Source: Escherichia phage AV112
DNA: 64,000 bases
Sequence record: OR352942.1
Reading direction: 5' to 3' (one strand)
Shown: positions 2,345 to 61,289 of the stretch, piece after piece
How the letters are laid out: the number at the start of each line of letters is the position of its first letter
Numbering within the stretch: position 1 is the first letter of the stretch
Notes under the pieces: generated by a model
Seen by the model: the letters and a program-made list of their open reading frames with translations, nothing else
Told to the model about the DNA's origin: nothing
Database searches by the model: none
Position numbers and translations under genes: made by a program

Positions 2345-4327
2345 ATGGCACTTCTCTCTCCGGGCGTTGAGCTCAAAGAAACTACCGTACAGAGTACTGT
2401 AGTTAATAACTCCACTGGTACTGCTGCCCTGGCTGGAAAATTCCAATGGGGACCTGCATTCCAGATTAAACAAATCACTGATGAAGTTGCATTGGTTGAT
2501 ATGTTTGGTACTCCTAATACGGATACAGCAGATTATTTCATGTCTGCTATGAACTTCCTTCAATATGGTAATGACCTTCGTGTTGTACGCGCAGTTGATC
2601 GTGATACCGCTAAGAACTCATCTCCTGTAGCAGGCAATATTGAATTCACAATCTCTGCTGCTGGTAGTAACTATGCAGTTGGTGATAAAATTATCGTTAA
2701 GTATTTGACCGAAACCGTTGAAGCAGATGGTTATGTCACTTCAGTTGATGTCGATGGTAAAATTCTTAACATTTATATCCCAACCGGTAAAATTATTGCT
2801 CGTGCAAAAGAAATTAATGAATATCCGGCATTGGGTTCTAATTGGACCGCTGAAGTTGCCAGTTCTTCTTCTGGACTTTCTGGCGTTATTACAATTGGTT
2901 CTATCGTAACCGATTCGGGTATTCTGTTAACTGAAGTTGAAACTTCTGAAGAAGCTATTACTTCTCTAACTTTCCAAGAATCTATTAAAAAATATGGTGT
3001 CCCAGGCGTAGTTGCTCTTTATCCTGGTGAACTTGGCGACCAGCTTGAAATTGAAATCGTATCTAAAGCAGACTATGACAAAGGTGCTTCAGCCCAGTTA
3101 AAAATTTATCCTGATGGTGGTACTCGTGCATCTACTGCTAAAGCAGTGTTTGGATATGGCCCACAAACTGATGACCAATACGCAATTATCGTTCGTCGTA
3201 ACGATGCTATAGTTCAGAGCGTAATTCTTTCTACTAAACGCGGTGAACGCGATATTTATGGTAGTAATATCTTTATTGATGATTTCTTTGCTAAAGGCGC
3301 AAGCAATTATATTTTCGCTACTGCACAAGGTTGGCCAAAAGGTTTCTCTGGCGTAATCAAACTGAGTGGTGGCTTATCATCTAATGAAACGGTTGACGCT
3401 GGTGATTTAATGGAAGCTTGGGATTTGTTTGCTGACCGTGAATCTGTTAATGCGCAGTTGTTTATTGCCGGTTCTTGTGCAGGTGAATCTTTAGAAGTTG
3501 CTTCTACAGTTCAGAAACATGTTGTAGCAATTGGTGATTCTCGCCAAGATTGTTTGGTTCTTTGCTCACCGCCACGTGCAACTATAGTCGGTATTCCTGT
3601 TAATCGTGCAGTTGATAATCTGGTTGATTGGCGTACTGCGTCAGGAACTTACACTGATAATAACTTTAATATAAGTTCTACTTATGCTGCTATTGACGGT
3701 AACTATAAATATCAATATGACAAATATAATGACGTGAATCGTTGGGTTCCATTAGCTGCTGATATTGCTGGTCTTTGTGCTCGCACAGACAATATTTCTC
3801 AGCCTTGGATGTCTCCTGCCGGTTATAACCGTGGACAAATTCTTAACGTTATTAAGCTTGCAATTGAAACTCGCCAACCGCAGCGTGATCGTTTGTATCA
3901 GGAAGCTATTAACCCTGTTACTGGTACCGGTGGTGATGGGTATGTTCTGTATGGTGATAAAACTGCCACTTCTGTTCCTTCACCATTTGACCGTATTAAC
4001 GTTCGTCGTTTGTTCAATATGGTTAAAACGAACATTGGTTCAGCATCTAAATATCGCCTGTTTGAATTGAACAACGCATTTACCCGTTCTTCTTTCCGTA
4101 CAGAGACTTCTCAATATCTACAGGGTATTAAAGCTCTTGGTGGTGTATATAACTTTAAAGTTGTTTGTGATACTACCAATAACACCCCAGCAGTTATCGA
4201 CCGTAATGAATTTGTAGCTACTTTCTACTTACAACCTGCCCGCTCGATAAATTATATTACGTTGAACTTTGTAGCAACAGCAACTGGTGCCGATTTCGAC
4301 GAACTAATTGGTACTGTAAGTGGCTAA
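2345..4327 (+). CDS. 18: Contractile tail sheath protein gp18
   Basis: 660 aa, T4 gp18 length (659) and sequence-like; preceded by TATAAATA late promoter and RBS. Confidence 0.95.
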   Translation: MALLSPGVELKETTVQSTVVNNSTGTAALAGKFQWGPAFQIKQITDEVALVDMFGTPNTDTADYFMSAMNFLQYGNDLRVVRAVDRDTAKNSSPVAGNIEFTISAAGSNYAVGDKIIVKYLTETVEADGYVTSVDVDGKILNIYIPTGKIIARAKEINEYPALGSNWTAEVASSSSGLSGVITIGSIVTDSGILLTEVETSEEAITSLTFQESIKKYGVPGVVALYPGELGDQLEIEIVSKADYDKGASAQLKIYPDGGTRASTAKAVFGYGPQTDDQYAIIVRRNDAIVQSVILSTKRGERDIYGSNIFIDDFFAKGASNYIFATAQGWPKGFSGVIKLSGGLSSNETVDAGDLMEAWDLFADRESVNAQLFIAGSCAGESLEVASTVQKHVVAIGDSRQDCLVLCSPPRATIVGIPVNRAVDNLVDWRTASGTYTDNNFNISSTYAAIDGNYKYQYDKYNDVNRWVPLAADIAGLCARTDNISQPWMSPAGYNRGQILNVIKLAIETRQPQRDRLYQEAINPVTGTGGDGYVLYGDKTATSVPSPFDRINVRRLFNMVKTNIGSASKYRLFELNNAFTRSSFRTETSQYLQGIKALGGVYNFKVVCDTTNNTPAVIDRNEFVATFYLQPARSINYITLNFVATATGADFDELIGTVSG

Positions 4328-4359
4328 TAAGACGCCTGATGGGCTATTTCGGTAGCCCA

Positions 4360-4367
4360 TATAAATA
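4360..4367 (+). promoter_or_regulatory. Late promoter TATAAATA (gene 19)
   Basis: Exact TATAAATA within extended motif CATATAAATATAACTATA. Confidence 0.7.
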
Positions 4368-4440
4368 TAACTATATCGTTTAAAAATTAATTCTATGGGC
4401 ATCTGGTTAATCCTAAGCCCATATTACTACAGAGGCTAAT

Positions 4441-4932
4441 ATGTTTGTAGATGACGTAACTCGTGCCTTCGAATCAGGTGATTTCGCTCGCCCTAACCTG
4501 TTCGAAGTAGAAATCTCTTATCTTGGGCAAAACTTTAGCTTCCAGTGTCGTGCTACGGCTCTTCCTGCTGCGATCGTTGAAAAGGTTCCTGTTTCTTATA
4601 TGAACCGTAAAATTAACGTGGCCGGTGATCGTACATTCGATGATTGGACTATTACAGTAATGAACGATGATGCTCATAGCATTCGTCAGAAATTTGTTGA
4701 TTGGCAAGGTATTGCAGCAGGACAAGGTAATGAAATTACCGGTGGTAAACCTGCTGAATATAAAAAGACCGCTATCGTTCGTCAATTTGCTCGTGATGCT
4801 AAAACGGTCACTAAAGAAGTTGAAATTGTTGGCTTGTGGCCTACTAACGTTGGTGAAGTATCTCTTGACTGGGACAGCAATAACGAGATTGAAACGTTCG
4901 AAGTAACTCTTGCTCTTGATTGGTGGGAATAA
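4441..4932 (+). CDS. 19: Tail tube protein gp19
   Basis: 163 aa as in T4 gp19; late promoter upstream; synteny. Confidence 0.95.
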   Translation: MFVDDVTRAFESGDFARPNLFEVEISYLGQNFSFQCRATALPAAIVEKVPVSYMNRKINVAGDRTFDDWTITVMNDDAHSIRQKFVDWQGIAAGQGNEITGGKPAEYKKTAIVRQFARDAKTVTKEVEIVGLWPTNVGEVSLDWDSNNEIETFEVTLALDWWE

Positions 4933-4980
4933 TCTGGTTGGGGAGAAATCCCCAGCTTCCCGTGATGACGGAGAAGTCCA

Positions 4981-4988
4981 TATAAATA
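4981..4988 (+). promoter_or_regulatory. Late promoter TATAAATA (gene 20)
   Basis: Exact TATAAATA, same extended motif as at 4360. Confidence 0.75.
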
Positions 4989-5016
4989 TAACTATAATTC
5001 CCATTCGGAGAATACA

Positions 5017-6588
5017 ATGAAATTTAATATCTTAAGTTTGTTTGCTCCATGGGCAAAAATGGACGAACGTGATTACAAAGACCAAGAAAAAGAAAATTTA
5101 GAATCTATCACCGCACCAAAATTGGACGACGGCGCTAAAGAATATGAAGTATCTGAAAATGAAGCACAGCAAACATATAATGCTATGTTTCAGAGAATGT
5201 TCGGTAGTCAAGAACCAGGGCTCAAATCAACCCGTGAATTAATCGATACGTATCGAAATTTGATGACGAACTATGAAGTGGATAACGCGGTCTCTGAAAT
5301 AGTTTCCGATGCTATCGTGTATGAAGATGATACAGAAGTCGTTTCTATAAATTTAGACAACACAAAATTTAGTCCAAATATCAAATCAATGATGTTGGAT
5401 GAATTTAATGAAGTGTTAAATCATTTATCTTTCCAACGTAAAGGTTCAGATCATTTTAGACGTTGGTATGTGGATTCTCGAATTTTCTTCCATAAAATTA
5501 TTGACCCTAAACGCCCTAAAGAAGGTATTAAAGAGCTTCGTCGTTTAGACCCACGTCAAGTTCAATATGTCCGTGAAGTTATTACAACCACTGAAGCCGG
5601 TGTTAAAATAGTCAAGGGTTATAAAGAATATTTCATTTATGACACATCACAAGAATCTTATGCTTGTGATGGTCGCATATATGAAGCTGGCACAAAAATA
5701 AAAATCCCTAAAGCCGCGATTGTTTATGCCCATTCTGGTTTAGTTGATTGTTGTGGTAAAAATATCATCGGTTATTTGCATCGGGCTATTAAGCCAGCGA
5801 ACCAATTAAAACTTCTTGAAGATGCCGTCGTAATTTATCGTATTACTCGTGCTCCCGATCGTCGTGTATGGTACGTTGATACAGGTAATATGCCTTCAAG
5901 AAAAGCAGCAGAACATATGCAACATGTTATGAATACGATGAAAAACCGTATTGCGTATGATGCTACTACAGGCAAGATTAAAAACCAGCAGCATATTATG
6001 TCGATGACCGAAGATTATTGGTTACAACGACGTGACGGTAAAGCGGTAACAGAAGTTGACACATTACCAGGTGCAGATAATACTGGAAATATGGAAGATG
6101 TACGTTGGTTCCGTAATGCTCTTTATATGGCTTTACGTATTCCTATTACCCGTATTCCAAGTGACCAAGGTGGTATACAGTTTGATGCTGGTACTTCTAT
6201 TACGCGAGATGAATTGACATTTGGTAAATTTATTCGTGAGCTGCAACATAAATTTGAAGAGATATTCCTAGACCCGCTTAAAACTAATTTAATTCTTAAA
6301 GGAATTATTACAGAAGATGAGTGGAATGATGAAATAAATAATATTAAGATAAAATTTCATCGGGATAGTTATTTCTCGGAATTAAAGGATGCTGAGATTC
6401 TGGAGCGTCGCATTAATATGCTTCAGATGGCCGAACCATTTATTGGTAAATATATTTCTCACAGAACAGCTATGAAAGATATTCTTCAGATGTCTGACGA
6501 GGAAATTGAACAAGAGGCTAAGCAAATTGAAGAAGAGTCGAAAGAGGCTCGTTTCCAAGACCCCGACCAAGAACAAGAGGATTTTTAA
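5017..6588 (+). CDS. 20: Portal vertex protein gp20
   Basis: 523 aa (T4 gp20 524); late promoter 29 nt upstream; synteny. Confidence 0.95.
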
Positions 6589-6818
6589 TGGACGATTTAA
6601 TTCAAGCTATTAAATCAAACGACCTCGTTGCTACTCGAAAGTTTTTTGAAAGTGCAATGGCAGAAAAAACGGTTCGTTTGATTGAAGCACGCAAAGCAGA
6701 AATCGCTTCTCAATTTTTGATTGAAGGCGAAGAACCTGAAGAAGAGAAAGCTTCGGAAGACGACGAAGACGAAGACGAAGATGATGACGAAGACGAAGAT
6801 GATGAGGACGATGAATAA
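6588..6818 (+). CDS. 67: Prohead core protein gp67 with poly-acidic C-terminus
   Basis: 76 aa; Asp/Glu-rich tail; start overlaps gene 20 stop; position between 20 and 68. Confidence 0.85.
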
Positions 6819-7243
6819 TGTATCTTATCCCTGAATCTTATGAATTGGTACTCGAAAATGTCGAAGCACTTATTCCTGAAGCACAGGGCCGAATCGATGC
6901 ATTGTCTTCTGCTCTCGATATTGACGATATAAATACTATTATCGAGAACATGCTTGAAACTGAAACGGATTTAGCTGTTGCAATGGCTTCCATTATTAAT
7001 GAAGAACAGTTAAATGAGTTTATCGTTAAACATGTTTCTTCTCGTGGTGAAGTCACTCGCACTAAAGACCGTAAAACTCGTGAACGTAACGCGTTCCAAA
7101 CAACTGGTCTTTCTAAAGCAAAACGTAGACAAATCGCTCGTAAGGTCGTTAAAGCTAAAAAAGCTAACCCTTCAGGCCAAGTTAAAGGCTTGCGTAAGCG
7201 TAAAAAAGCTCTTAAACGTCGTAAAGCATTAGGATTAAGCTAA
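6818..7243 (+). CDS. 68: Prohead core protein gp68
   Basis: 141 aa as in T4; basic C-terminus; synteny. Confidence 0.85.
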
Positions 7244-7884
7244 TGAATAAACCCGAGTTACTTATTGAAACTTGGGGTCAACCCGGTGAGATTATTGATG
7301 GCGTTCCAATGTTGGAATCTCATGATGGAAAAGATTCTGGCTTAAAACCAGGGCTTTATATAGAAGGTATTTTTCTTCAGGCAGAGGTTGTTAACCGAAA
7401 TAAACGTTTATATCCTAAACGCGTTTTGGAAAAAGCAGTAAGTGACTATATTAAAGAACAAGTCGAAACCAAACAAGCCCTTGGAGAATTAAACCATCCA
7501 CCTCGTGCAAATGTTGACCCCATGCAAGCCGCTATCATTATTGAAGATATGTGGTGGAAAGGAAACGATGTATATGGACGTGCTAGAATTATTGAAGGCG
7601 ACCATGGTCCCGGTGATAAATTAGCTGCTAATATACGTGCTGGTTGGATTCCAGGTGTTTCCTCTCGTGGTCTTGGTTCTTTAACCGACACCAATAAAGG
7701 GTACCGTATCGTGAACGAAGGATTTAAATTAACCGTCGGCGTAGATGCCGTATGGGGACCTTCTGCTCCAGATGCTTGGGTTACTCCTAAACAAATATCA
7801 GAATCAGAAAATTCGGTGGAAATCACCAAAAACAGTGCTGATGAAGCATTTAAAGCTCTCGCAGAGAGTTTAAAAGCATTATAA
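7243..7884 (+). CDS. 21: Prohead core protease gp21
   Basis: 213 aa (T4 212); synteny 68-21-22. Confidence 0.9.
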   Translation: MNKPELLIETWGQPGEIIDGVPMLESHDGKDSGLKPGLYIEGIFLQAEVVNRNKRLYPKRVLEKAVSDYIKEQVETKQALGELNHPPRANVDPMQAAIIIEDMWWKGNDVYGRARIIEGDHGPGDKLAANIRAGWIPGVSSRGLGSLTDTNKGYRIVNEGFKLTVGVDAVWGPSAPDAWVTPKQISESENSVEITKNSADEAFKALAESLKAL

Positions 7885-7887
7885 ATA
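7880..7887 (+). promoter_or_regulatory. Late promoter TATAAATA (gene 22)
   Basis: Exact TATAAATA 31 nt upstream of start. Confidence 0.7.
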
Positions 7888-7917
7888 ATAATGTAATCTA
7901 AACCACAGGACACTAAA

Positions 7918-8730
7918 ATGATCAAAGAACAACTTTTGAAAGAAGCTCAAAACATCGAGACTTCAGTTGCTCTTAATAGTGTTTTCGAATCAGTAGAACT
8001 GTCTCCGGACGTTAAAGCTAATTTCAGCACTGTATTCGAAGCCACCGTTAAGCAGGAAGCAGTCAAACTGGCTGAATCTCATATCAAAGCCATCGCCGAA
8101 AAGGCCGAAGAAGAAGTTGAAAAGGCCAAAGAAGATGCTGAAGAGAAAGCTGATAAAAAATTGGCTGAACAAGCTTCTAAATTCCTAGACCATCTTGCAA
8201 AAGAATGGCTCGCAGAAAACCAAATCGCAGTTGATAAAGGCATTAAAGCTGATTTGTTCGAATCCATGCTTGGTGGTCTGAAAGAACTGTTTGTTGAACA
8301 TAACGTTGTTGTTCCAGAAGAATCTGTAGATGTTGTAGCAGAAATGGAAGAAGAGCTGGCCGAACATAAAGAAGAAACCGCTCGTTTGTTCGAAGAAGTT
8401 ACCAAACGTGATGCATATATCAATTACGTTCAGCGTGAAACCGCTATTAATGAAAGCGTAAAAGACCTGACTGAATCTCAGAAAGAAAAAGTTATTGGCC
8501 TGGTTGAAGGTATGGATTATTCTGACGCATTTGGTACTAAGTTAACTGCTATTGTAGAAATGGTTAAAGGTTCTACTAAAGAAGAAGCCGCTATTACCGA
8601 AAGTATAAATACAGTTGACAATGACGCTGCCGGTCTTAATTTTGTTGCCGAAGCAGTTGACACTACCACAACTCAGGTAGAACAGAATTCTAATGTAAGT
8701 TTATATGCGAAAGTCGCATCTCGTTTCTAA
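7918..8730 (+). CDS. 22: Prohead scaffold core protein gp22
   Basis: 270 aa, acidic coiled-coil-like; late promoter upstream; synteny. Confidence 0.9.
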   Translation: MIKEQLLKEAQNIETSVALNSVFESVELSPDVKANFSTVFEATVKQEAVKLAESHIKAIAEKAEEEVEKAKEDAEEKADKKLAEQASKFLDHLAKEWLAENQIAVDKGIKADLFESMLGGLKELFVEHNVVVPEESVDVVAEMEEELAEHKEETARLFEEVTKRDAYINYVQRETAINESVKDLTESQKEKVIGLVEGMDYSDAFGTKLTAIVEMVKGSTKEEAAITESINTVDNDAAGLNFVAEAVDTTTTQVEQNSNVSLYAKVASRF

Positions 8731-8747
8731 TTTAAAGGTTAACACAA

Positions 8748-10370
8748 ATGACTACTATCAAAACTAAAGCTCAGCTCGTAGACAAATGGAAAGAACTGCT
8801 GGAAGGTGAAGGCCTGCCGGAAATCGCTAATAGCAAGCAGGCTATTATCGCTAAAATCTTCGAAAACCAGGAAAAAGATTTCGAAGTATCCCCTGAATAT
8901 AAAGACGAGAAAATCGCTCAGGCATTTGGTTCTTTCTTGACCGAAGCTGAAATTGGTGGTGACCATGGTTATAATGCTCAGAACATCGCAGCAGGTCAAA
9001 CCTCTGGTGCAGTAACCCAAATTGGGCCAGCAGTTATGGGTATGGTTCGTCGTGCTATTCCTAATCTGATCGCTTTTGATATTTGTGGTGTTCAGCCTAT
9101 GAACAGCCCGACCGGTCAGGTATTTGCTCTCCGTGCAGTATATGGTAAAGACCCTATCGCTGCTGGCGCTAAAGAAGCTTTCCATCCGATGTATGCCCCG
9201 GACGCGATGTTCTCTGGTCAGGGTGCTGCTAAGAAATTCCCAGCTCTGGCTGCTGACACTACTACTGTTGTAGGTGATATCTATACTCACTTCTTCCAAG
9301 AAACTGGTACCGTATATCTGCAAGCTTCTGCTATCGTAACACTTGATTCTGGTGCGACTGATGCTGCTAAATTAGATGCCGAAGTTAAGAAACAAATGGA
9401 AGCTGGTGCGACTGATGCTGCTAAATTAGATGCCGAAGTTAAGAAACAAATGGAAGCTGGTGCACTGGTAGAAATCGCTGAAGGTATGGCTACTTCTATC
9501 GCTGAACTCCAGGAAGGTTTCAACGGTTCTACCGATAACCCATGGAATGAAATGGGCTTCCGTATCGATAAACAAGTTATTGAAGCTAAATCTCGCCAGC
9601 TGAAAGCTGCTTACTCTATCGAATTAGCACAAGACCTCCGTGCAGTACACGGTATGGATGCTGATGCTGAACTGAGCGGTATTCTGGCTACAGAAATTAT
9701 GCTAGAAATCAACCGTGAAGTTGTTGATTGGATTAACTACTCAGCACAGGTTGGTAAATCTGGTATGACCCTGACTCCGGGTTCTAAAGCCGGTGTATTT
9801 GACTTCCAGGACCCGATTGATATCCGTGGTGCTCGTTGGGCCGGTGAAAGCTTTAAATCTCTGTTGTTCCAGATTGATAAAGAAGCAGTTGAAATTGCTC
9901 GTCAAACCGGTCGTGGTGAAGGTAACTTCATTATCGCTTCCCGTAACGTAGTTAACGTACTGGCTTCAGTTGATACTGGTATTTCTTACGCTGCACAGGG
10001 TCTGGCTTCTGGTTTTAATACCGACACTACTAAGTCTGTATTTGCCGGTGTACTTGGTGGTAAATACCGCGTATACATCGACCAGTATGCTAAACAGGAT
10101 TACTTCACCGTTGGTTACAAAGGCGCTAACGAAATGGATGCAGGTATTTACTATGCTCCTTACGTTGCACTTACCCCACTGCGTGGTTCCGATCCTAAGA
10201 ACTTCCAGCCGGTAATGGGCTTTAAAACTCGTTACGGTATCGGTGTTAACCCGTTTGCTGAAAGTTCCCTGCAGGCTCCAGGTGCTCGCATCCAGTCCGG
10301 TATGCCGTCTATCCTGAACAGCCTTGGTAAGAACGCTTACTTTAGACGCGTCTACGTTAAAGGAATTTAA
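8748..10370 (+). CDS. 23: Major capsid protein gp23 (540 aa; carries internal 18-aa tandem duplication)
   Basis: T4 gp23-like throughout (T4 is 521 aa); C-terminus ...FRRVYVKGI; contains perfect 2x54-nt repeat at 9351-9458. Confidence 0.95.
   Translation: MTTIKTKAQLVDKWKELLEGEGLPEIANSKQAIIAKIFENQEKDFEVSPEYKDEKIAQAFGSFLTEAEIGGDHGYNAQNIAAGQTSGAVTQIGPAVMGMVRRAIPNLIAFDICGVQPMNSPTGQVFALRAVYGKDPIAAGAKEAFHPMYAPDAMFSGQGAAKKFPALAADTTTVVGDIYTHFFQETGTVYLQASAIVTLDSGATDAAKLDAEVKKQMEAGATDAAKLDAEVKKQMEAGALVEIAEGMATSIAELQEGFNGSTDNPWNEMGFRIDKQVIEAKSRQLKAAYSIELAQDLRAVHGMDADAELSGILATEIMLEINREVVDWINYSAQVGKSGMTLTPGSKAGVFDFQDPIDIRGARWAGESFKSLLFQIDKEAVEIARQTGRGEGNFIIASRNVVNVLASVDTGISYAAQGLASGFNTDTTKSVFAGVLGGKYRVYIDQYAKQDYFTVGYKGANEMDAGIYYAPYVALTPLRGSDPKNFQPVMGFKTRYGIGVNPFAESSLQAPGARIQSGMPSILNSLGKNAYFRRVYVKGI
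9351..9458 (+). repeat. Perfect 2 x 54-nt in-frame tandem duplication inside gene 23
   Basis: Copy 1 at 9351-9404 is identical to copy 2 at 9405-9458; encodes GATDAAKLDAEVKKQMEA twice. Confidence 0.95.
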
Positions 10371-10399
10371 TGCTTTAACGTTAAAATACATAACCTTAT

Positions 10400-10427
10400 G
10401 GGAGACTTCGGTCTCCCATTTTTGGTT
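10400..10427 (+). terminator. Rho-independent terminator after gene 23 (GGGAGAC-UUCG-GUCUCCC plus U-run)
   Basis: Perfect 7-bp stem with UUCG tetraloop followed by T-run. Confidence 0.7.
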
Positions 10428-10697
10428 TTATTTCTGTGCAATTTCAATGTAAGTTTTCAAAATATTTTGCCAATTAGGCATACCTTCTTGGACATATGCT
10501 GGAGAACCGTCTTTGTTTTTGAATGATGCAAGTTTATCAGTGGCCCAATAACCTTTAGCTCGAGCTTCAGAATCAACTTTCATCCATACTTTGTTGAAGG
10601 CATTACCATTAACTTTTGCACCATATTTTTCTACTAACTTAGCTGCTTCAGCTTCCAGAACTTTTAAAGTATCTCGTAAGAAACGTGCTTTAGTCAT
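10428..10697 (-). CDS. Hypothetical 89-aa protein, antisense to the late capsid operon (segD position in T4)
   Basis: ORF with GAGGAG RBS 7 nt upstream and early-type promoter GTTTAC-N18-TACTAT upstream; no nuclease motifs seen. Confidence 0.55.
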   Translation of the reverse strand: MTKARFLRDTLKVLEAEAAKLVEKYGAKVNGNAFNKVWMKVDSEARAKGYWATDKLASFKNKDGSPAYVQEGMPNWQNILKTYIEIAQK

Positions 10698-10724
10698 TTT
10701 GTTTACTCCTCTGTAGTTGATAAG

Positions 10725-10760
10725 TCTATAGTATCACATACCAAATACGTTGTAAACAAT
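10725..10760 (-). promoter_or_regulatory. Early-type promoter (-35 GTTTAC, 18-nt spacer, -10 TACTAT)
   Basis: Read on minus strand upstream of ORF 10428-10697. Confidence 0.6.
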
Positions 10761-10763
10761 CTT

Positions 10764-10771
10764 TATAAATA
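10764..10771 (+). promoter_or_regulatory. Late promoter TATAAATA (gene 24)
   Basis: Exact TATAAATA 28 nt upstream of start. Confidence 0.7.
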
Positions 10772-10798
10772 ATCTATATCACATAAGGAAAAAATGCA

Positions 10799-12082
10799 AT
10801 GAGTAAAATCCAAAAATTATTGCGTGAATCTACAACGTCTACTAGCAACTCAATTGGTCGCCCAAATCTCGTTGCTTTGACTCGCGCTACGACTAAATTA
10901 ATATATTCTGACATTGTAGCAACACAAAGAACTAATCAACCTGTTGCTGCTTTTTATGGTATCAAATATCTTAACCCAGATAACGAATTCACATTTAAAA
11001 CTGGTGCTACTTATGCAGGCGAAGTTGGATATGTGGACCGAGAAAAAATTACTGAGCTCACAGAAGATTCAAAAGCCACACTAAATAAAGGCGATTTTTT
11101 CAAATATAATAATATCGTCTATAAAGTGTTAGAAGATACACCGTTTGCAGATATTCAAGAAAGTGATCTAGAACTAGCTCTTCAGATTGCAATCGTTCAT
11201 TTAAAGGTACGGTTATTTTCAGATGCAGCGGTAACAAGCAAATTTGAAAGCTCTGATAGCGAAATTTCTGATGCAAGATTCCAGATTAATAAATGGCAAA
11301 CTTCGGTCAAATCTCGTAAACTTAAAACTGGTCTCACGGTTGAATTAGCGCAAGATTTGGAAGCGAATGGATTTGATGCCCCTAACTTCTTAGAAGATTT
11401 GCTTGCTACTGAAATGGCTGATGAAATTAATAAAGATATTCTTCAGTCTTTAATTACTGTATCTAAACGCTATAAAGTTACTGGAATTACTGACACCGGA
11501 TTTATTGACTTGAGCTATGCATCCGCTCCAGAAGCAGGTCGTTCATTATATCGAATGGTGTGTGAAATGGTATCACACATTCAAAAAGAGACAACTTATA
11601 CTGCAACGTTTTGTGTAGCCTCAGCTCGTGCAGCTGCTATTCTTGCTGCTTCTGGTTGGTTAAAACATAAGCCAGAAGATGACAAGTATCTTTCACAAAA
11701 TGCTTATGGATTCTTGGCAAATGGATTACCTCTTTACTGCGATACCAACAGTCCGTTAGATTATGTTATTGTGGGTGTTGTAGAAAATATCGGCGAAAAA
11801 GAAATTGTAGGGTCCATCTTTTATGCTCCATACACTGAAGGAGTAGATTTAGATGACCCTGAACATGTTGGTGCATTTAAAGTTGTAGTTGATCCAGAAA
11901 GCTTGCAACCGTCTATCGGATTATTGGTTAGATATGCTTTATCAGCAAATCCTTACACAGTAGCAAAAGATGAAAAAGAAGCGAGAATAATTGATGGCGG
12001 GGACATGGATAAAATGGCAGGACGTTCAGACTTGTCTGTTTTACTCGGTGTTAAATTGCCAAAAATCATCGTTGATGAATAA
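10799..12082 (+). CDS. 24: Capsid vertex protein gp24
   Basis: 427 aa as in T4 gp24; late promoter 28 nt upstream. Confidence 0.9.
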   Translation: MSKIQKLLRESTTSTSNSIGRPNLVALTRATTKLIYSDIVATQRTNQPVAAFYGIKYLNPDNEFTFKTGATYAGEVGYVDREKITELTEDSKATLNKGDFFKYNNIVYKVLEDTPFADIQESDLELALQIAIVHLKVRLFSDAAVTSKFESSDSEISDARFQINKWQTSVKSRKLKTGLTVELAQDLEANGFDAPNFLEDLLATEMADEINKDILQSLITVSKRYKVTGITDTGFIDLSYASAPEAGRSLYRMVCEMVSHIQKETTYTATFCVASARAAAILAASGWLKHKPEDDKYLSQNAYGFLANGLPLYCDTNSPLDYVIVGVVENIGEKEIVGSIFYAPYTEGVDLDDPEHVGAFKVVVDPESLQPSIGLLVRYALSANPYTVAKDEKEARIIDGGDMDKMAGRSDLSVLLGVKLPKIIVDE

Positions 12083-12120
12083 AAAAAAAAAGGGACCTTA
12101 CGGTCCCTTTTTTTTTATGA
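12081..12120. terminator. Bidirectional terminator between gene 24 and rnlB (A10-GGGACC-uuac-GGUCCC-T10)
   Basis: Hairpin flanked by A-run and T-run, between convergent genes. Confidence 0.8.
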
Positions 12121-13113
12121 TACTAATTCAATCCATGCAGGACGCAGAACATCTTGCACCATTCGGACTAATTCTTTCTTAACAAGATTCGGATTATCAG
12201 ATGATGTTAATACAATACCTTCACGAGAAGTTTCTTCCAGAATATCTTGAACAGTCAATCCCATCACTTTGCCAAAATCTTTTGGCGTTACAGTCCCAAT
12301 CTTAGAAATCACATTATTAACACGATTTAATGTAACATAACAAGCTAGAACATCAAGCAAGTTTTTGTCAATTTCGGTTAATGGAACCTGAGTTTTAATA
12401 GGCTTATCAGACTTTTTCTTTTCACTGAATTTAGAGTTCTTGCACTTAATAGCTACACGAGTACCGTTTGGCAGCCATTTAGGGAAACAAGGCTTCAGAA
12501 CATAACCTTCTGCCGTATTATCGCCAATAACATTAGCATCAAATACACAATTATTTGCCTCTACAAGGTCTTCTGACGCAGTAGCATTATAAGCGGCTAA
12601 GACGGAATCAAGGTCGTTCGGAATCATGATAAGAGAATCAAATGTTCCACGACCAAGCATTGGTGCCATTTTAAAACCGAATTCATTACAGAAATCTTGC
12701 ATTTCGTAATCGGTCAAATACGTATTATCACCACTTTCTGTATTGATAAGGATATCGAACACATAAAAATCTTTTTCACCGTAGTCAACACCTTTCTGGA
12801 TTCCACCGCCAGCGAATTCACCGAATACTTGATATGATACGGCTCGAGCTGCGTGCATTAATTCCTGAACGGCTTTAATAGCTTTATCATACTTCTTGAG
12901 TACGATTTCATAGCCGTAAAAATCTTCTGCTGGAAGAATAGGGCCTGTGCGCTTGGCGCATGTGACGTTGTCACGTTCAATTATTAACGAGAAGTTGGTC
13001 CCGTGGATCTTCTCACGTGCTACCCAAACACCAGTAGTCAAACCGTTAGTGTAGAGGTTTTCAATAAACTTAGAGTTGTAGTGGTTTTCAAGACTGCTGT
13101 ATTTCTTAAACAT
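12115..13113 (-). CDS. rnlB: RNA ligase 2 (RnlB)
   Basis: 332 aa; N-terminus [16 protein letters not shown] and adenylation motif EKIHGTNFS match T4 Rnl2. Confidence 0.9.
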
Positions 13114-13199
13114 AAATCACCATTATAAATAATAATATCAAAATAATTAGCAGAGACTCTATCTCTGTCCCAATGTTTAATTTGAATGGATAGAACCTA

Positions 13200-13235
13200 G
13201 ATTCATTATACCATCAAAAAATGTAAAGCATACTA
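13200..13235 (-). promoter_or_regulatory. Possible MotA-dependent middle promoter (MotA box TGCTTTA, 13 nt, TATAAT)
   Basis: Read on minus strand upstream of rnlB. Confidence 0.4.
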
Positions 13236-13484
13236 GAACTTGATTTCTATCCAGTGCCCATCACGCTGGTCGTGATTAATTTTGTACTGAAAGCCGTTAT
13301 CACGGAACCACTGCCCGATTTGCTCGGTGATAGTTAAATCATTCTTTGACGGATAGTATGTAAATTGTGTCTGGCCTTTGTCAGCGGCTTTCTCTGCCAT
13401 CACAGAGAAGTTAGTAATAAAATCTTTCAACAAATTGGCTTTAGTGGCCAGGGCCCTTTCTCTTAATTCCTGTGCAAAACTCAT
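13233..13484 (-). CDS. Hypothetical protein (T4 24.2/24.3-region ORF)
   Basis: 83-aa ORF, position between rnlB and hoc. Confidence 0.55.
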   Translation of the reverse strand: MSFAQELRERALATKANLLKDFITNFSVMAEKAADKGQTQFTYYPSKNDLTITEQIGQWFRDNGFQYKINHDQRDGHWIEIKF

Positions 13485-13681
13485 TTCTTCACCTTTTTGT
13501 TAATAAAACGTTTACGGTATACAACTTTTTCTTTTGCTTTAAACTTTGACCGAGCTGTCTCGGCTTTAGTCCATAGTAATCCAACTTCTTTAGGTTGTAA
13601 ACCGATTTTTTGAGCAATTTCTACGAATGAAAATCCCGCCTCATGTAATGTATAAACTTCAACTTCAGCTCTCATAATCAA
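13481..13681 (-). CDS. Hypothetical small basic protein (T4 24.x-region ORF)
   Basis: 66-aa ORF, overlaps downstream ORF start by 4 nt. Confidence 0.55.
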   Translation of the reverse strand: MIMRAEVEVYTLHEAGFSFVEIAQKIGLQPKEVGLLWTKAETARSKFKAKEKVVYRKRFINKKVKK

Positions 13682-13756
13682 TCCCGTATTATTTGGTTTG
13701 TGCCATTATACACATCAATCTCAAGATGTGTTTTGTATGCTTTAAAAACGAAGAAA

Positions 13757-13770
13757 GGGGCCGAAGCCCC
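13757..13770 (-). terminator. Hairpin terminator downstream of hoc (GGGGC-UUCG-GCCCC)
   Basis: UUCG tetraloop hairpin then T-rich tract on minus strand. Confidence 0.55.
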
Positions 13771-13776
13771 TTACGA

Positions 13777-14628
13777 TTATTGATAGGTATAGATGATACC
13801 AGTTTCTAAAGCAGTTTTATGAATGATGTATCCATTACGTGATTCTTGAACATCAACTTCTGGATAATCTTGCAACATCTTCTGAAGAGTGTAACGATGC
13901 AGGTAGTATTTACTATCTGGATCTTCAGTTTTCCAATCTTTACCTTCTTCGGTCATTTTTTGGATTTCATCCATAACCCACCAACCGCACCAGATGTAAG
14001 CTGAAGTACGATGTGGAAGAGGATGAACATAAGGTAATTCGCCTTCTGGTTCTTGAGCAACTTTATCATTCACAGTCAGTGATACTTCATTCGAAGTAAC
14101 TTCCTTTGCATCATAATCTGTCGCTGTTACTTGAGCTACACACTTAATTGTTTTAACTCCGCTTGTGGAAGGAGTGTAATTAAATGTAGCAGAAGTTGCT
14201 TCGCCTACAGGAGAACCGTCAACGTACCACTGATACGTAGCAGATGCGCCTGATGGTTGAGAAGCTAAAGCAGCAGTAAATTCAACAGGAGTTCCAATCG
14301 CTCCAGCAGCAGGACTATCAGGAGTTACAGCTAAGGTAGTTGACTGAGTTTTATTTTTAACTGTGATAGTTGTTGTCGCTTCAGCCGTTTCCGGGCCTCC
14401 TTCAGAAAGTGTATTTGTTGCAACAACTTTAATTGTTTTTGTTCCAGCAGGTCCTTTTAACACATAATCAAAAGTTGCTTCAGATCCATCTTGTTGAACA
14501 TTATCTACAGTCCAAGCATAGGTAATAGTTCCACCTCCAGTTTCACCACTGGGTGTAGCAGTAAACTGCTGAGTCTGATCTATAACTCCAGTAGGTGTTT
14601 TAGGAGTTATATCAACTGTAAAAGTCAT
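13777..14628 (-). CDS. hoc: Hoc head outer capsid protein (283 aa; shorter than T4 Hoc)
   Basis: N-terminus MTFTVDITPKTPTGVID and C-terminal capsid-binding region match T4 Hoc; Ig-like repeats. Confidence 0.9.
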   Translation of the reverse strand: MTFTVDITPKTPTGVIDQTQQFTATPSGETGGGTITYAWTVDNVQQDGSEATFDYVLKGPAGTKTIKVVATNTLSEGGPETAEATTTITVKNKTQSTTLAVTPDSPAAGAIGTPVEFTAALASQPSGASATYQWYVDGSPVGEATSATFNYTPSTSGVKTIKCVAQVTATDYDAKEVTSNEVSLTVNDKVAQEPEGELPYVHPLPHRTSAYIWCGWWVMDEIQKMTEEGKDWKTEDPDSKYYLHRYTLQKMLQDYPEVDVQESRNGYIIHKTALETGIIYTYQ

Positions 14629-14637
14629 AAGTTATCC

Positions 14638-15306
14638 TTATTTTAATGTTACGAAAGAAGAATTGCGTGTTTCACGAATTAGAACTGATCCGTCGCGATT
14701 AATGTAATAAATTAAGCTAAATAAAGTTTGGTGAGCAGAAGCATGCACAAAACTAGTTGGGCGAGATTTCCAATCTGGGGTTTCGGCTATCCATTGATAA
14801 ATCCACCAAGGAACAGTAACATATCCTGGGCCTTTGCCTAATTTAATGAGTGTAGGACTAAAATTTTCAGGCAGAACAAATTTTACTTCTTTATTTACAT
14901 CTGCCTCAGGCTCTTTTTCAGATTCAACAACCTGAGTAATTGCTTCTTCGAATTTATCATGGTCGAATTCTTTTTCTTGTTCGACAACTTCTAATACTTC
15001 AACTTGTTCTGTTGGAGAATCAAACAACAGAATAGCTTCTTCTTTAACTTCTTCGTTGGTGAAATTAACACCGTCCACATCATCTGCGGCAGTAATTAAA
15101 TCGGTGATAGATAATCCATCAGTTTCAGGTAATGGTTCATCAGCCAGTGCTTTAAGAGCTTCTTCGATATCAATAACAATATTATCGAATGATTTTGTTT
15201 TCTTAACACTAATCCCAAATTGTTCTGCGTATTCAAACAGTTTAGCTTTGGCTTCCTTTTTATCAGAAAGAGCACGTAACTCTTCAATATAGTCTTTATC
15301 GATCAT
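14638..15306 (-). CDS. inh: Inh, inhibitor of prohead protease
   Basis: 222 aa (T4 Inh 226); position between hoc and uvsW. Confidence 0.8.
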   Translation of the reverse strand: MIDKDYIEELRALSDKKEAKAKLFEYAEQFGISVKKTKSFDNIVIDIEEALKALADEPLPETDGLSITDLITAADDVDGVNFTNEEVKEEAILLFDSPTEQVEVLEVVEQEKEFDHDKFEEAITQVVESEKEPEADVNKEVKFVLPENFSPTLIKLGKGPGYVTVPWWIYQWIAETPDWKSRPTSFVHASAHQTLFSLIYYINRDGSVLIRETRNSSFVTLK

Positions 15307-15319
15307 GGTATTTCCTCAT

Positions 15320-15327
15320 TATAAATA
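15320..15327 (+). promoter_or_regulatory. Late promoter TATAAATA (uvsW)
   Basis: Exact TATAAATA in motif CATTATAAATATAACTATA. Confidence 0.7.
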
Positions 15328-15356
15328 TAACTATATTTATTACATGGTAATTTGAC

Positions 15357-16871
15357 ATGACTGACATTAAAGTACATTTTTATGATTTTAGTCACGTGCG
15401 CATTGAATGCGACGAAAGTACGTTTTACGAACTTCGTGACTTTTTTAGTTTTGAAGCTGACGGGTATAAATTTAACCCAAAATATCGCTATGGGAACTGG
15501 GATGGTAGAATTCGACTTTTAGATTATAACCGTTTGTTACCATATGGACTTGTAGGACAAATAAAAAAGTTCTGTAATAATATGAGTTATTCTGTATGGA
15601 TTGACCCTAAAATATTTGAGACCGAAGACCTTACCAGGGAAGATTTTGACGCATGGCTTTCTAAACAAGAAATTTATTCGGGCAACTCCAAAATCGAACC
15701 ACATTGGTATCAAAAAGATGCAGTATACGAAGGATTAGTTAATCGTCGTCGAATTTTAAACCTTCCGACATCAGCAGGTAAATCACTAATCCAAGCACTT
15801 TTAGCTCGATATTATCTAGAGAACTATGAAGGTAAAATTCTCATTATCGTCCCTACAACAGCATTGACAACCCAGATGGCTAATGATTTTGTTGATTATC
15901 GCTTGTTTAGTCATTCGATGATTAAGAAAATTGGCGGTGGTGCTGATAAAGCAGACAGAGCTAAAAACGACGCTCCAATTATTGTTGGCACATGGCAAAC
16001 AGTAGTTAAGCAGCCTAAAGAATGGTTCTCTCAGTTCGGTATGATGATGAATGATGAATGCCACTTAGCAACAGGCAAAAGTATTTCTTCAATCATCTCA
16101 GGATTAAATAATTGCATGTTTAAATTCGGTTTATCTGGCTCATTAAGAGATGGAAAAGCCAATGTAATGCAGTACGTAGGTATGTTCGGCGAAATCTTCC
16201 GTCCTGTTAGCACGTCTAAATTAATGGAAGACGGACAGGTAACTGAGCTTAAGATTAATAGTATTTTCCTTCGTTATCCGGACGAATTCACCGTTAAATT
16301 AAAAGGTAAAACATACCAAGAAGAAGTTAAAATTATTACCGGACTAAAACGACGTACAAAGTGGATTGCTCAACTTTCAGTCAAATTGGCTAAGAAAGAC
16401 GAGAACGCCTTTGTAATGTTTAAACACGTTACACACGGTAAAGAAATATTTGAAGCTATTAAAGAGCTTGGATACGAAAAAGTTTATTACGTATCAGGTG
16501 AAGTTGATACTGAAACACGTAACGCGCTTAAAGTCATGGCAGAAAATGGTAAAGGCATTATTATTGTCGCATCATATGGAGTATTCTCTACTGGTATTTC
16601 AGTCAAGAATCTTCATCATGTTATTTTTGCCCATGGTGTTAAATCAAAAATTATCGTACTTCAAACCGTAGGTCGCGTGCTTCGTAAGCATGGTTCTAAA
16701 GCTGTTGCTACAGTTTGGGATCTCATCGATGACGCAGGTGTAAAACCTAAATCATTAAATACTAAAAAGAAGTATACTCATCTTAATTACTTGTTAAAAC
16801 ACGGTATTGATCGTATCCAACGTTACGCTGATGAGAAATTTAACTATGTAATGAAAACAATTAATTTATAA
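15357..16871 (+). CDS. uvsW: UvsW DNA/RNA helicase
   Basis: 504 aa; Walker A PTSAGKS and DExH box NDECH; late promoter upstream. Confidence 0.9.
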   Translation: MTDIKVHFYDFSHVRIECDESTFYELRDFFSFEADGYKFNPKYRYGNWDGRIRLLDYNRLLPYGLVGQIKKFCNNMSYSVWIDPKIFETEDLTREDFDAWLSKQEIYSGNSKIEPHWYQKDAVYEGLVNRRRILNLPTSAGKSLIQALLARYYLENYEGKILIIVPTTALTTQMANDFVDYRLFSHSMIKKIGGGADKADRAKNDAPIIVGTWQTVVKQPKEWFSQFGMMMNDECHLATGKSISSIISGLNNCMFKFGLSGSLRDGKANVMQYVGMFGEIFRPVSTSKLMEDGQVTELKINSIFLRYPDEFTVKLKGKTYQEEVKIITGLKRRTKWIAQLSVKLAKKDENAFVMFKHVTHGKEIFEAIKELGYEKVYYVSGEVDTETRNALKVMAENGKGIIIVASYGVFSTGISVKNLHHVIFAHGVKSKIIVLQTVGRVLRKHGSKAVATVWDLIDDAGVKPKSLNTKKKYTHLNYLLKHGIDRIQRYADEKFNYVMKTINL

Positions 16872-16882
16872 GGGCTTCGGCC
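16871..16882 (+). other. Intercistronic UUCG hairpin between uvsW and uvsW.1
   Basis: GGGC-UUCG-GCCC directly before the uvsW.1 RBS; no U-run. Confidence 0.5.
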
Positions 16883-16896
16883 CTTAGGAGATAAAA

Positions 16897-17127
16897 ATGG
16901 TACTTGAATTTAAACAATTTTTATACGAAGCATCTATTGACGAATTCATGGGTAAAATTGCTAGTTGTCATACCTTAGAAGGGCTTGAAGAATTGGAAGC
17001 TTATTATAAGAAACGTATAAAAGAAACGAAATTAAAAGATACAGATGATATTTCTGTCAGGGATGCCTTAGCAGGGAAGCGTGCCGAACTTGAAGGCGAC
17101 GATGATGATGAGGAAGAAGACTTCTAA
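16897..17127 (+). CDS. uvsW.1: UvsW.1 small acidic protein
   Basis: 76 aa as in T4 UvsW.1; follows uvsW after hairpin and RBS. Confidence 0.8.
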   Translation: MVLEFKQFLYEASIDEFMGKIASCHTLEGLEELEAYYKKRIKETKLKDTDDISVRDALAGKRAELEGDDDDEEEDF

Positions 17128-25782: not shown

Positions 25783-25818
25783 ATGATAGTATCACACATC
25801 CATGTGTTTGTAAACTAT
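25783..25818 (-). promoter_or_regulatory. Early-type promoter GTTTAC-N18-TACTAT
   Basis: Upstream of ORF 25463-25756. Confidence 0.6.
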
Positions 25819-39633: not shown

Positions 39634-39668
39634 AGCCATAGTAACACCTTCCTTGGTGTTTGTAAACC
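39634..39668 (-). promoter_or_regulatory. Early-type promoter GTTTAC-N18-TACTAT (alc)
   Basis: Located in 3' end of rnlA, upstream of alc start. Confidence 0.55.
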
Positions 39669-61081: not shown

Positions 61082-61127
61082 AACGTTTTATTCATTCCAC
61101 TTAGTTGATATGGATATAGTACCAATA

Positions 61128-61289
61128 TCAGTGTTGATTGTAAACGGCTTTTTCTACGCTTTTAACGTAATTGGTATAGTCTTCTTGTTCGTACGAGTGT
61201 AAGGCCAAGAACGGAACTAATAGTTCATTATAGACTAAAGCCTCACGCTCACGTTCGGCCTCTACTACGTTCTGAAGATTATGACTCAT
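61128..61289 (-). CDS. Hypothetical small protein
   Basis: Track ORF 61128-61343 trimmed to internal ATG to limit overlap with upstream ORF; uncertain. Confidence 0.35.
   Translation of the reverse strand: MSHNLQNVVEAEREREALVYNELLVPFLALHSYEQEDYTNYVKSVEKAVYNQH

Follow-up and report, generated by a model that had tools for sequence, protein, structure and literature searches.

The window, as we call the stretch of DNA analysed here, comprises 64,000 nucleotides of Escherichia phage AV112 (OR352942.1), and its local gene order is T4-like: 20, 67, 68, 21, 22, 23, a variable slot, 24, rnlB, 24.2, 24.3, hoc and inh. Gene 23, encoding the major capsid protein, forms the left flank of the slot (8748..10370, plus strand) and gene 24, encoding the capsid vertex protein, the right flank (10799..12082, plus strand), so that 428 bp separate the end of one from the start of the other. 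The single long ORF in this gap lies on the minus strand at 10428..10697, antisense to the late structural genes on either side. It encodes 89 amino acids starting MTKARFLRDTLKVLEAEAAKLVEKYGAKVNGN and is recorded as hypothetical protein WPK34653.1 in OR352943.1; the ORF listing bears out the gap, the frame and the sequence quoted in the preliminary description of this DNA. Direct reading places a GAGGAG Shine-Dalgarno element 8 nt 5’ of the ATG (10706..10711, minus strand). Further upstream on the same strand, a promoter scan finds the extended -10 element TGaTACTAT of an early-type, sigma-70 promoter (10728..10736, with TACTAT itself at 10728-10733), and sequence reading together with a pattern count finds a -35 GTTTAC that matches the T4 early-promoter consensus (10752..10757). 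The late promoter of gene 24, TATAAATA (10764..10771, plus strand), lies directly against the -35 of this early promoter, which faces the other way, and sets the upstream limit of the cassette. At the other end, a terminator scan finds a GC-rich hairpin, readable on both strands, that serves gene 23 as its intrinsic terminator on the plus strand (10398..10419).

The region is 100% identical, at the same coordinates, to Escherichia phage AV113 (OR352943.1; Straboviridae, Tevenvirinae, Mosigvirus). The sole difference found relative to that record across 4300-16900 is a run of 11 A rather than 10 A in the terminator region 3’ of gene 24 (window 12080-12091), which offsets downstream record coordinates by 1. 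Gene 23 contains a 54-bp tandem duplication (window 9349-9467; 2.2 copies, 98% match) that adds 18 amino acids, repeats GATDAAKLDAEVKKQMEA and gives a major capsid protein of 540 aa against 522 in RB69. Among 910 phage records matching this stretch AV113 alone shares the duplication, and in every other match listed the 321-bp query maps onto 267 bp. The duplication is either a genuine insertion or an artefact of assembly. Gene 24 is single-copy in the window, T4 and RB69, and is tandemly duplicated, as capsid vertex proteins I and II, in Dhakaviruses, Gapriverviruses and related metagenomic contigs (L002, L003, L018, L028).

The signals in front of the 89-aa ORF had been described as a GAGGAG ribosome binding site and an early-consensus promoter, GTTTAC-N18-TACTAT, and both lie where that description put them. 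The 18-nt spacer ends in TGA, and in the register used by the promoter scanner the site reads TTTACA-17-TACTAT with an extended -10 TG; by its sequence it is a predicted near-optimal sigma-70 promoter with an extended -10. The T4 early-promoter consensus has GTTTAC at -36 to -31 (PMC1524935), and the promoter of the 89-aa ORF has this T4-type early form, TG included, in the orientation of the gene. A count of GTTTAC-N15-19-TANNNT over the window gives 19 occurrences, compared with 5.0 +/- 2.3 in shuffled sequence, and 17 of the 19 are on the minus strand. The ORF promoter shares its detailed form, GTTTACA...TGnTAnnAT, with the other sites, 16 of which are on the minus strand as well. Many of the minus-strand sites share the extended form GTTTACA...TGnTA[CT]TAT (for example 25786-25815, 39638-39667 and 61116-61145), and the 17 sites together offer a ready map of candidate early promoters in this phage.

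These signals are more durable than the protein they serve. Promoter, leader, ribosome binding site, the spacing of about 100 nt to gene 24 and the 3’ hairpin are all kept among relatives whose proteins are only 30-60% identical. Across eight aligned relatives the -35 reads [G/A]T[T/G]TACA, with only T..TACA invariant, the extended -10 is kept as TG-n-TA[CT]TAT, and GGAG or GAGGAG stands at the same position in all T4-like homologues. The late promoter of gene 24 is present in all relatives, including T2 and KPV15, whose slots are empty. The hairpin at 10398-10419 folds as minus-strand RNA with -19.1 kcal/mol (z = -5.4) and is also kept 3’ of the ORF in relatives. It is the only terminator-like structure 3’ of the minus-strand ORF and therefore probably terminates transcription in both directions; the U-run that follows it is poor on the minus strand, so termination there may be leaky. 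As the terminator of gene 23 it is conserved among T4-like genomes (PMC1524935). An Rfam scan of the region returned nothing except a noise-level match to the hairpin.

Comparison of the region across T4-like genomes, the check proposed in the preliminary description, clearly shows that the ORF is conserved. By tblastn it is found in about 239 phage records, in the same slot: approximately 120 Mosigvirus records at >95% identity and approximately 119 Dhakavirus or Gaprivervirus records at 30-37%. In every case that we inspected (VR20, VR5, 04086 and the metagenomic contigs encoding P0005, P0006, P0010 and P0011) it occupies the 23-24 gap in antisense orientation. The length of the ORF is conserved in the alignments down to about 30% protein identity, and at the codon level dN/dS is 0.078-0.14 between alleles of Dhakaviruses and 0.13-0.25 in wider comparisons limited to unsaturated pairs. 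The ORF is a protein-coding gene under purifying selection. Residues K3, F6, G31, N32, N35 and Q70 are invariant and L14, L21, N30, A45, G64 and N75 nearly so. Several of these appear to be core residues or helix caps, and NGN, N35, Q70 and N75 may be just such caps rather than a binding site.

Four states of the slot can be distinguished: empty, ORF, ORF with segD, and segD alone. In the empty state, seen in T2, in most of the approximately 460 Tequatrovirus records and in the Jiaodavirus KPV15, about 83 bp separate the two genes, and the empty slots of T2 and KPV15 hold only the hairpin and the late promoter of gene 24, with no early promoter. SegD reportedly does not home into the empty slot of T2, to go by the title of the 2018 report of Sokolov et al. 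The ORF without segD characterizes approximately 120 Mosigvirus records and those Dhakaviruses and Gapriverviruses that do not carry segD. In the RB69 reference genome (NC_004928; L007 9292-9532) the reading frame is broken by one deleted and one inserted base pair that flank a diverged patch, and its two fragments are annotated as ORF188c and ORF189c; in phage mogra the homologue is likewise split, into mogra_94 and mogra_95. These splits could be real pseudogenes or sequencing errors. Because the gene is broken in RB69 and mogra, we consider it dispensable on laboratory hosts.

The preliminary description had pointed out that the slot is used by a mobile endonuclease in relatives, and in particular that T4 carries segD there. 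Both statements hold. T4 has segD on the minus strand of the 23-24 gap, and segD alone, antisense, is found in T4, RB18 and others, about 53 Tequatrovirus records in all. Since T4 segD is antisense too, the antisense orientation of the 89-aa ORF is not special. In 38 Dhakavirus records (IME08, IME341, AV109, AV114-116, JK45, F2 and others) a segD homologue of 223 aa follows the ORF after 3 nt in the same orientation, so that the two are neighbours, not alternatives. This segD is inserted at the stop codon of the ORF, has rewritten its last two or three codons, places its own ribosome binding site, GGAG, within the last codons of the 89-aa ORF, and ends just before the hairpin. The record of phage 04086 (L004 3001-3942) omits this segD from its annotation and lists gene 23 as truncated.

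The T4 locus (NC_000866; L005 5234-5300, minus strand) retains what appears to be a trace of the cassette. In front of segD lies an early-type promoter and leader, ATTTACA-N-TGATATTAT...CAAACGGAG, and the upstream sequence ATTTACAAGACCAAAGTAATATGATATTATAATCATATACAAACGGAG aligns column for column with the ORF promoter and leader of a metagenomic relative, GTTTACAAGCCCAAAGCAGCATGATACTATACTCCTATACCAAACAAACGGAG. The arrangement suggests an order of events in which the ORF was resident, segD entered at its 3’ end, the T4 lineage lost the ORF, and segD kept the promoter. A review stated that a segD-specific promoter could not be found and that transcript levels are probably vanishingly low (PMC2988022), while time-resolved omics of T4 infection classes segD RNA as early and detects the SegD protein (PMC9697503, supplements 4 and 6). 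An early-type promoter derived from the cassette would reconcile the two accounts. From the promoter of the 89-aa ORF, and from these T4 data on a homologous promoter, we infer that the 89-aa ORF is expressed early. The four-state slot is a worked example of how a homing endonuclease may enter beside a resident accessory gene and then replace it.

The gene changes and moves more readily than its surroundings. Between AV113 and VR5, gp23 is 80% and gp24 71% identical but the 89-aa protein only 31%, and by such alignments the ORF evolves much faster than its neighbours. The ORF phylogeny disagrees with that of gp23, and one metagenomic contig (L018) pairs a Dhaka-type gp23 (93%) with a Mosig-type ORF allele (62% vs 25%). 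Homologues also exist outside the T4-like phages: in blocks of small co-oriented genes in phage ABPH49 of the Vequintavirinae (rV5-like) and a related contig, and in a siphovirus contig, where the homologue adjoins a GpJ-type tail gene. No homologue turned up when 185,579 bacterial and archaeal species genomes were scanned by motif, a scan of IMG/VR found only known Dhakavirus and Gaprivervirus isolates, and the family appears confined to virulent phages. The suggestion that this is an accessory gene is well supported by its absence from most Tequatroviruses and from Jiaodavirus, its breakage in RB69 and mogra, its fast evolution and its homologues in unrelated phages. With its own promoter and a terminator, presence/absence polymorphism and horizontal transfer, it is a moron-like accessory cassette. 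Taken together, these observations make it very probable that the slot holds a real, expressed, accessory early protein-coding cassette.

The encoded protein is small and basic (10.1 kDa, pI 9.6, net charge about +5.5), hydrophilic, and free of cysteine and histidine. Its charge is a family trait: the pI is 9.5-9.9 in eight of nine members and the net charge +5 to +6.6, despite identities of about 30%. AlphaFold2 predicts a helix (3-25), a second helix (31-48), a beta-hairpin and a third helix (76-88) with a pLDDT of 88.7, only two of the five models of this protein being confident; for P0010, which is 31% identical, the same topology is predicted with a pLDDT of 91.3 and all five models at or above 85. 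Of the profile and structure searches that had been proposed, the part concerning family membership succeeded: the protein matches PHROG 6003 over its full length (E = 6.9e-45, 152 bits, residues 1-89 on profile positions 1-90 of 90), and two members share a confidently predicted topology. The part concerning function did not, as no functional or fold match emerged. PHROG 6003 has no assigned function, so membership gives the protein a name only. Foldseek against the PDB gave a best E of 0.54 and no structural relative among solved structures, and a profile search against PDB sequences matched only a designed coiled coil (E = 0.0026). Foldseek against BFVD gave one match, an 88-aa viral protein that is 31% identical and that we take to be a family member. 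The predicted helix-helix-hairpin-helix arrangement is apparently a new fold.

Several candidate relationships were considered and set aside. Pfam DUF4859 gives a partial match (19.1 bits, E = 0.0013) below its gathering threshold of 22.6 bits, and is seen in only three of ten members, the three being close relatives. In NCBIfam and PADLOC no family matches the 89-aa protein, and isolated matches at E >= 0.0045 each concern a single member; Ca_bind_SSO6904, putAbiC, JAB and CurA, from Pfam, NCBIfam and PADLOC, are all sub-threshold and inconsistent among members. The name ‘NADPH-dependent curcumin reductase CurA’ given by JGI to P0006 (90 aa, L018 5001-5273) is a spurious label, an annotation error because its sole support is a noise-level NCBIfam match (E = 0.047). 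When 1.8 billion protein representatives were searched exhaustively with HMMER, nine matches emerged, seven of them small proteins or fragments of this family. The other two, giant Big_2 or filamin-repeat proteins (E = 5e-18 and 7e-7), are artefacts of summing 9-11 repeats, each of which contributes 3-13 bits with per-domain E-values above 7,000. Membership in the Big_2 immunoglobulin-like family is further rejected on the lack of any domain-level match and on a model that is mostly helical, not all-beta. The preliminary description had also seen no GIY-YIG or HNH motif, and Pfam agrees: for GIY-YIG there is no match at E <= 10 for the 89-aa protein or at E <= 1 for 10 members, and for HNH none for the protein or 10 family members. 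A SegD-like endonuclease is rejected on size as well, with 89 aa against a class length of about 200-250 aa, and on the start of SegD (MKYLIYQITN in T4, MNYLIYKITN in 04086), which the 89-aa protein does not resemble.

What might such a protein do? We give roughly even chances to the view that the locus is an autonomous, moron-like early accessory gene whose small basic product binds a host target; for the final element by itself, that the 89-aa protein is a host-directed binder, we would put the chances at even or a little below. Host sigma-70 RNA polymerase would initiate at the early promoter, which diverges from the adjoining late promoter of gene 24, right after entry of the DNA. The resulting short mRNA, a leader of about 24 nt and the 89-codon ORF, opposed to the late capsid operon, would be translated from its strong Shine-Dalgarno sequence, and minus-strand transcription would end at the hairpin that terminates gene 23. 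In the first minutes of infection the soluble 10-kDa basic protein would then bind a host component, either a defence factor or a takeover target, whose presence may vary among strains. A strain-variable host target is our best guess because the ORF is dispensable, patchy, exchanged and fast-evolving yet under purifying selection. Neither homology nor fold matches in Pfam, the PDB, BFVD, NCBIfam or PADLOC point to any target or activity.

The main rival of this host-binder view, given the conserved positive charge, is that the protein binds nucleic acid and tunes the phage’s own expression or DNA transactions, as a translational repressor, an RNA chaperone or a DNA-binding factor. A net charge of +5 to +6.6 and a pI of 9.5-9.9 kept at 30% identity suit a nucleic-acid binder no less well than a protein binder, the product is a small helical protein without cysteine, and its early promoter is of the kind that T4 regulators use; we nevertheless judge this unlikely. 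It is also possible to see the cassette as a product of segD homing traffic, with the ORF as a landing pad or hitch-hiking cargo that persists through linkage or gene conversion. The position of segD exactly at the ORF stop codon, co-oriented, in 38 Dhakavirus records, the use by T4 segD of the ORF promoter and leader, and the incongruence of ORF alleles with the gp23 phylogeny are all in keeping with such traffic. However, dN/dS values of 0.08-0.25 indicate selection on the protein itself, the approximately 120 Mosigvirus records and the remaining Dhakaviruses and Gapriverviruses have the ORF without segD, and the rV5-like and siphovirus homologues have no endonuclease neighbour, which leaves this an improbable account of why the ORF persists.

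Location invites another explanation, a virion-associated or head-assembly role as an internal, decoration or assembly protein, in view of the place of the ORF between genes 23 and 24, the presence nearby of hoc and inh, which are minus-strand head-related genes, and a faint match to phrog_8765 ‘internal virion protein’ (E = 0.13). The internal head proteins of T4 (IPI-III) carry an N-terminal capsid-targeting sequence ending in an L/I-x-E cleavage site for gp21, and are expressed late or in the middle period. Direct reading of the alignments finds no conserved N-terminal L/I-x-E cleavage or capsid-targeting motif in this family, for which reason we reject the internal-head-protein interpretation. 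The promoter, moreover, is early-type rather than TATAAATA, the gene is broken in RB69, whose heads are normal, and homologues in other phages sit among early genes, so that any virion role is very unlikely. Finally, it may be that only transcription matters, through an early ‘anti-late’ antisense RNA or promoter interference at the 23-24 junction, with the ORF incidental or a chance frame. Early and late promoters do stand back to back here, and the weak minus-strand U-tract could permit read-through into antisense gene 23. But purifying selection, an ORF length kept at 30% identity, a confidently predicted shared fold and homologues in unrelated genomic contexts all speak for the protein, and we find this explanation hardly credible.

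It is tempting to extend the host-target hypothesis further. The 89-aa protein could found a family of early effectors with a new fold, exchanged among at least three lineages of virulent coliphages in order to neutralise a host factor that varies between strains, for instance a defence system. The cassette would at the same time be the setting in which SegD naturally homes, inserting at the ORF stop codon, and whose promoter SegD has taken over in T4. We regard this larger combination as rather doubtful. If true, it would explain why the promoter of segD in T4 was missed, and might account for the reported failure of SegD to home into T2, where the slot is empty.

Seen by itself, the 89-aa ORF is a commonplace piece of phage “dark matter”, like many other small early genes of T4-like phages that are uncharacterised. 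More than 200 GenBank records already annotate it as a hypothetical protein, and it is clustered in PHROG 6003; a literature search returned nothing on RB69ORF188c/189c or VR7ORF190c. Of interest are the four-state polymorphism of the slot and the connection with segD, together with an apparently new fold and a distribution over unrelated virulent phages. Because the family is delimited, phage-only, under purifying selection and predicted to have a new fold, the gene is a clean candidate for anti-defence and host-takeover screens in Mosigvirus and Dhakavirus, and phages of both genera are under development against ESBL E. coli. The early-protein screen in AV110 picked its genes by homology to T4 (bioRxiv 10.64898/2026.09.14.751387), and the 89-aa gene therefore falls outside it. 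HIDEN-SEQ has so far been applied to T4 and Bas37 (bioRxiv 10.1101/2025.11.20.689424), both of which are without the gene.

Three known systems help to place the cassette. The small T-even ‘host-takeover’ genes, such as AV110 Gp94/Emp and T4 MotB and Alc, resemble it in being short ORFs with a sigma-70 early promoter on the early strand, and in being dispensable, patchy and fast-evolving. Their products have no sequence or fold similarity to the 89-aa protein, however, and the 89-aa ORF stands alone within the late head-gene block and not in an early gene cluster. Morons, a concept from the lambdoid phages, are autonomous units of promoter, gene and terminator, inserted between genes that are neighbours in related phages. 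The 89-aa ORF likewise has its own promoter, uses a terminator, has been transferred horizontally, and lies between flanks that adjoin each other in T2, KPV15 and most Tequatroviruses. Classical morons, in contrast, are expressed from repressed prophages and benefit the lysogen, whereas the phage here is strictly virulent and would express the gene as lytic infection begins. The closest parallel in position is the segD locus of T4, which shares with the cassette its slot, antisense orientation, terminator hairpin and a homologous promoter and leader; segD and the 89-aa ORF are both dispensable inserts in a slot that otherwise measures about 83 bp. They differ in what they encode, a GIY-YIG endonuclease of 223 aa in one case and, in the other, a protein of 89 aa without GIY-YIG or HNH motifs and without similarity to SegD.
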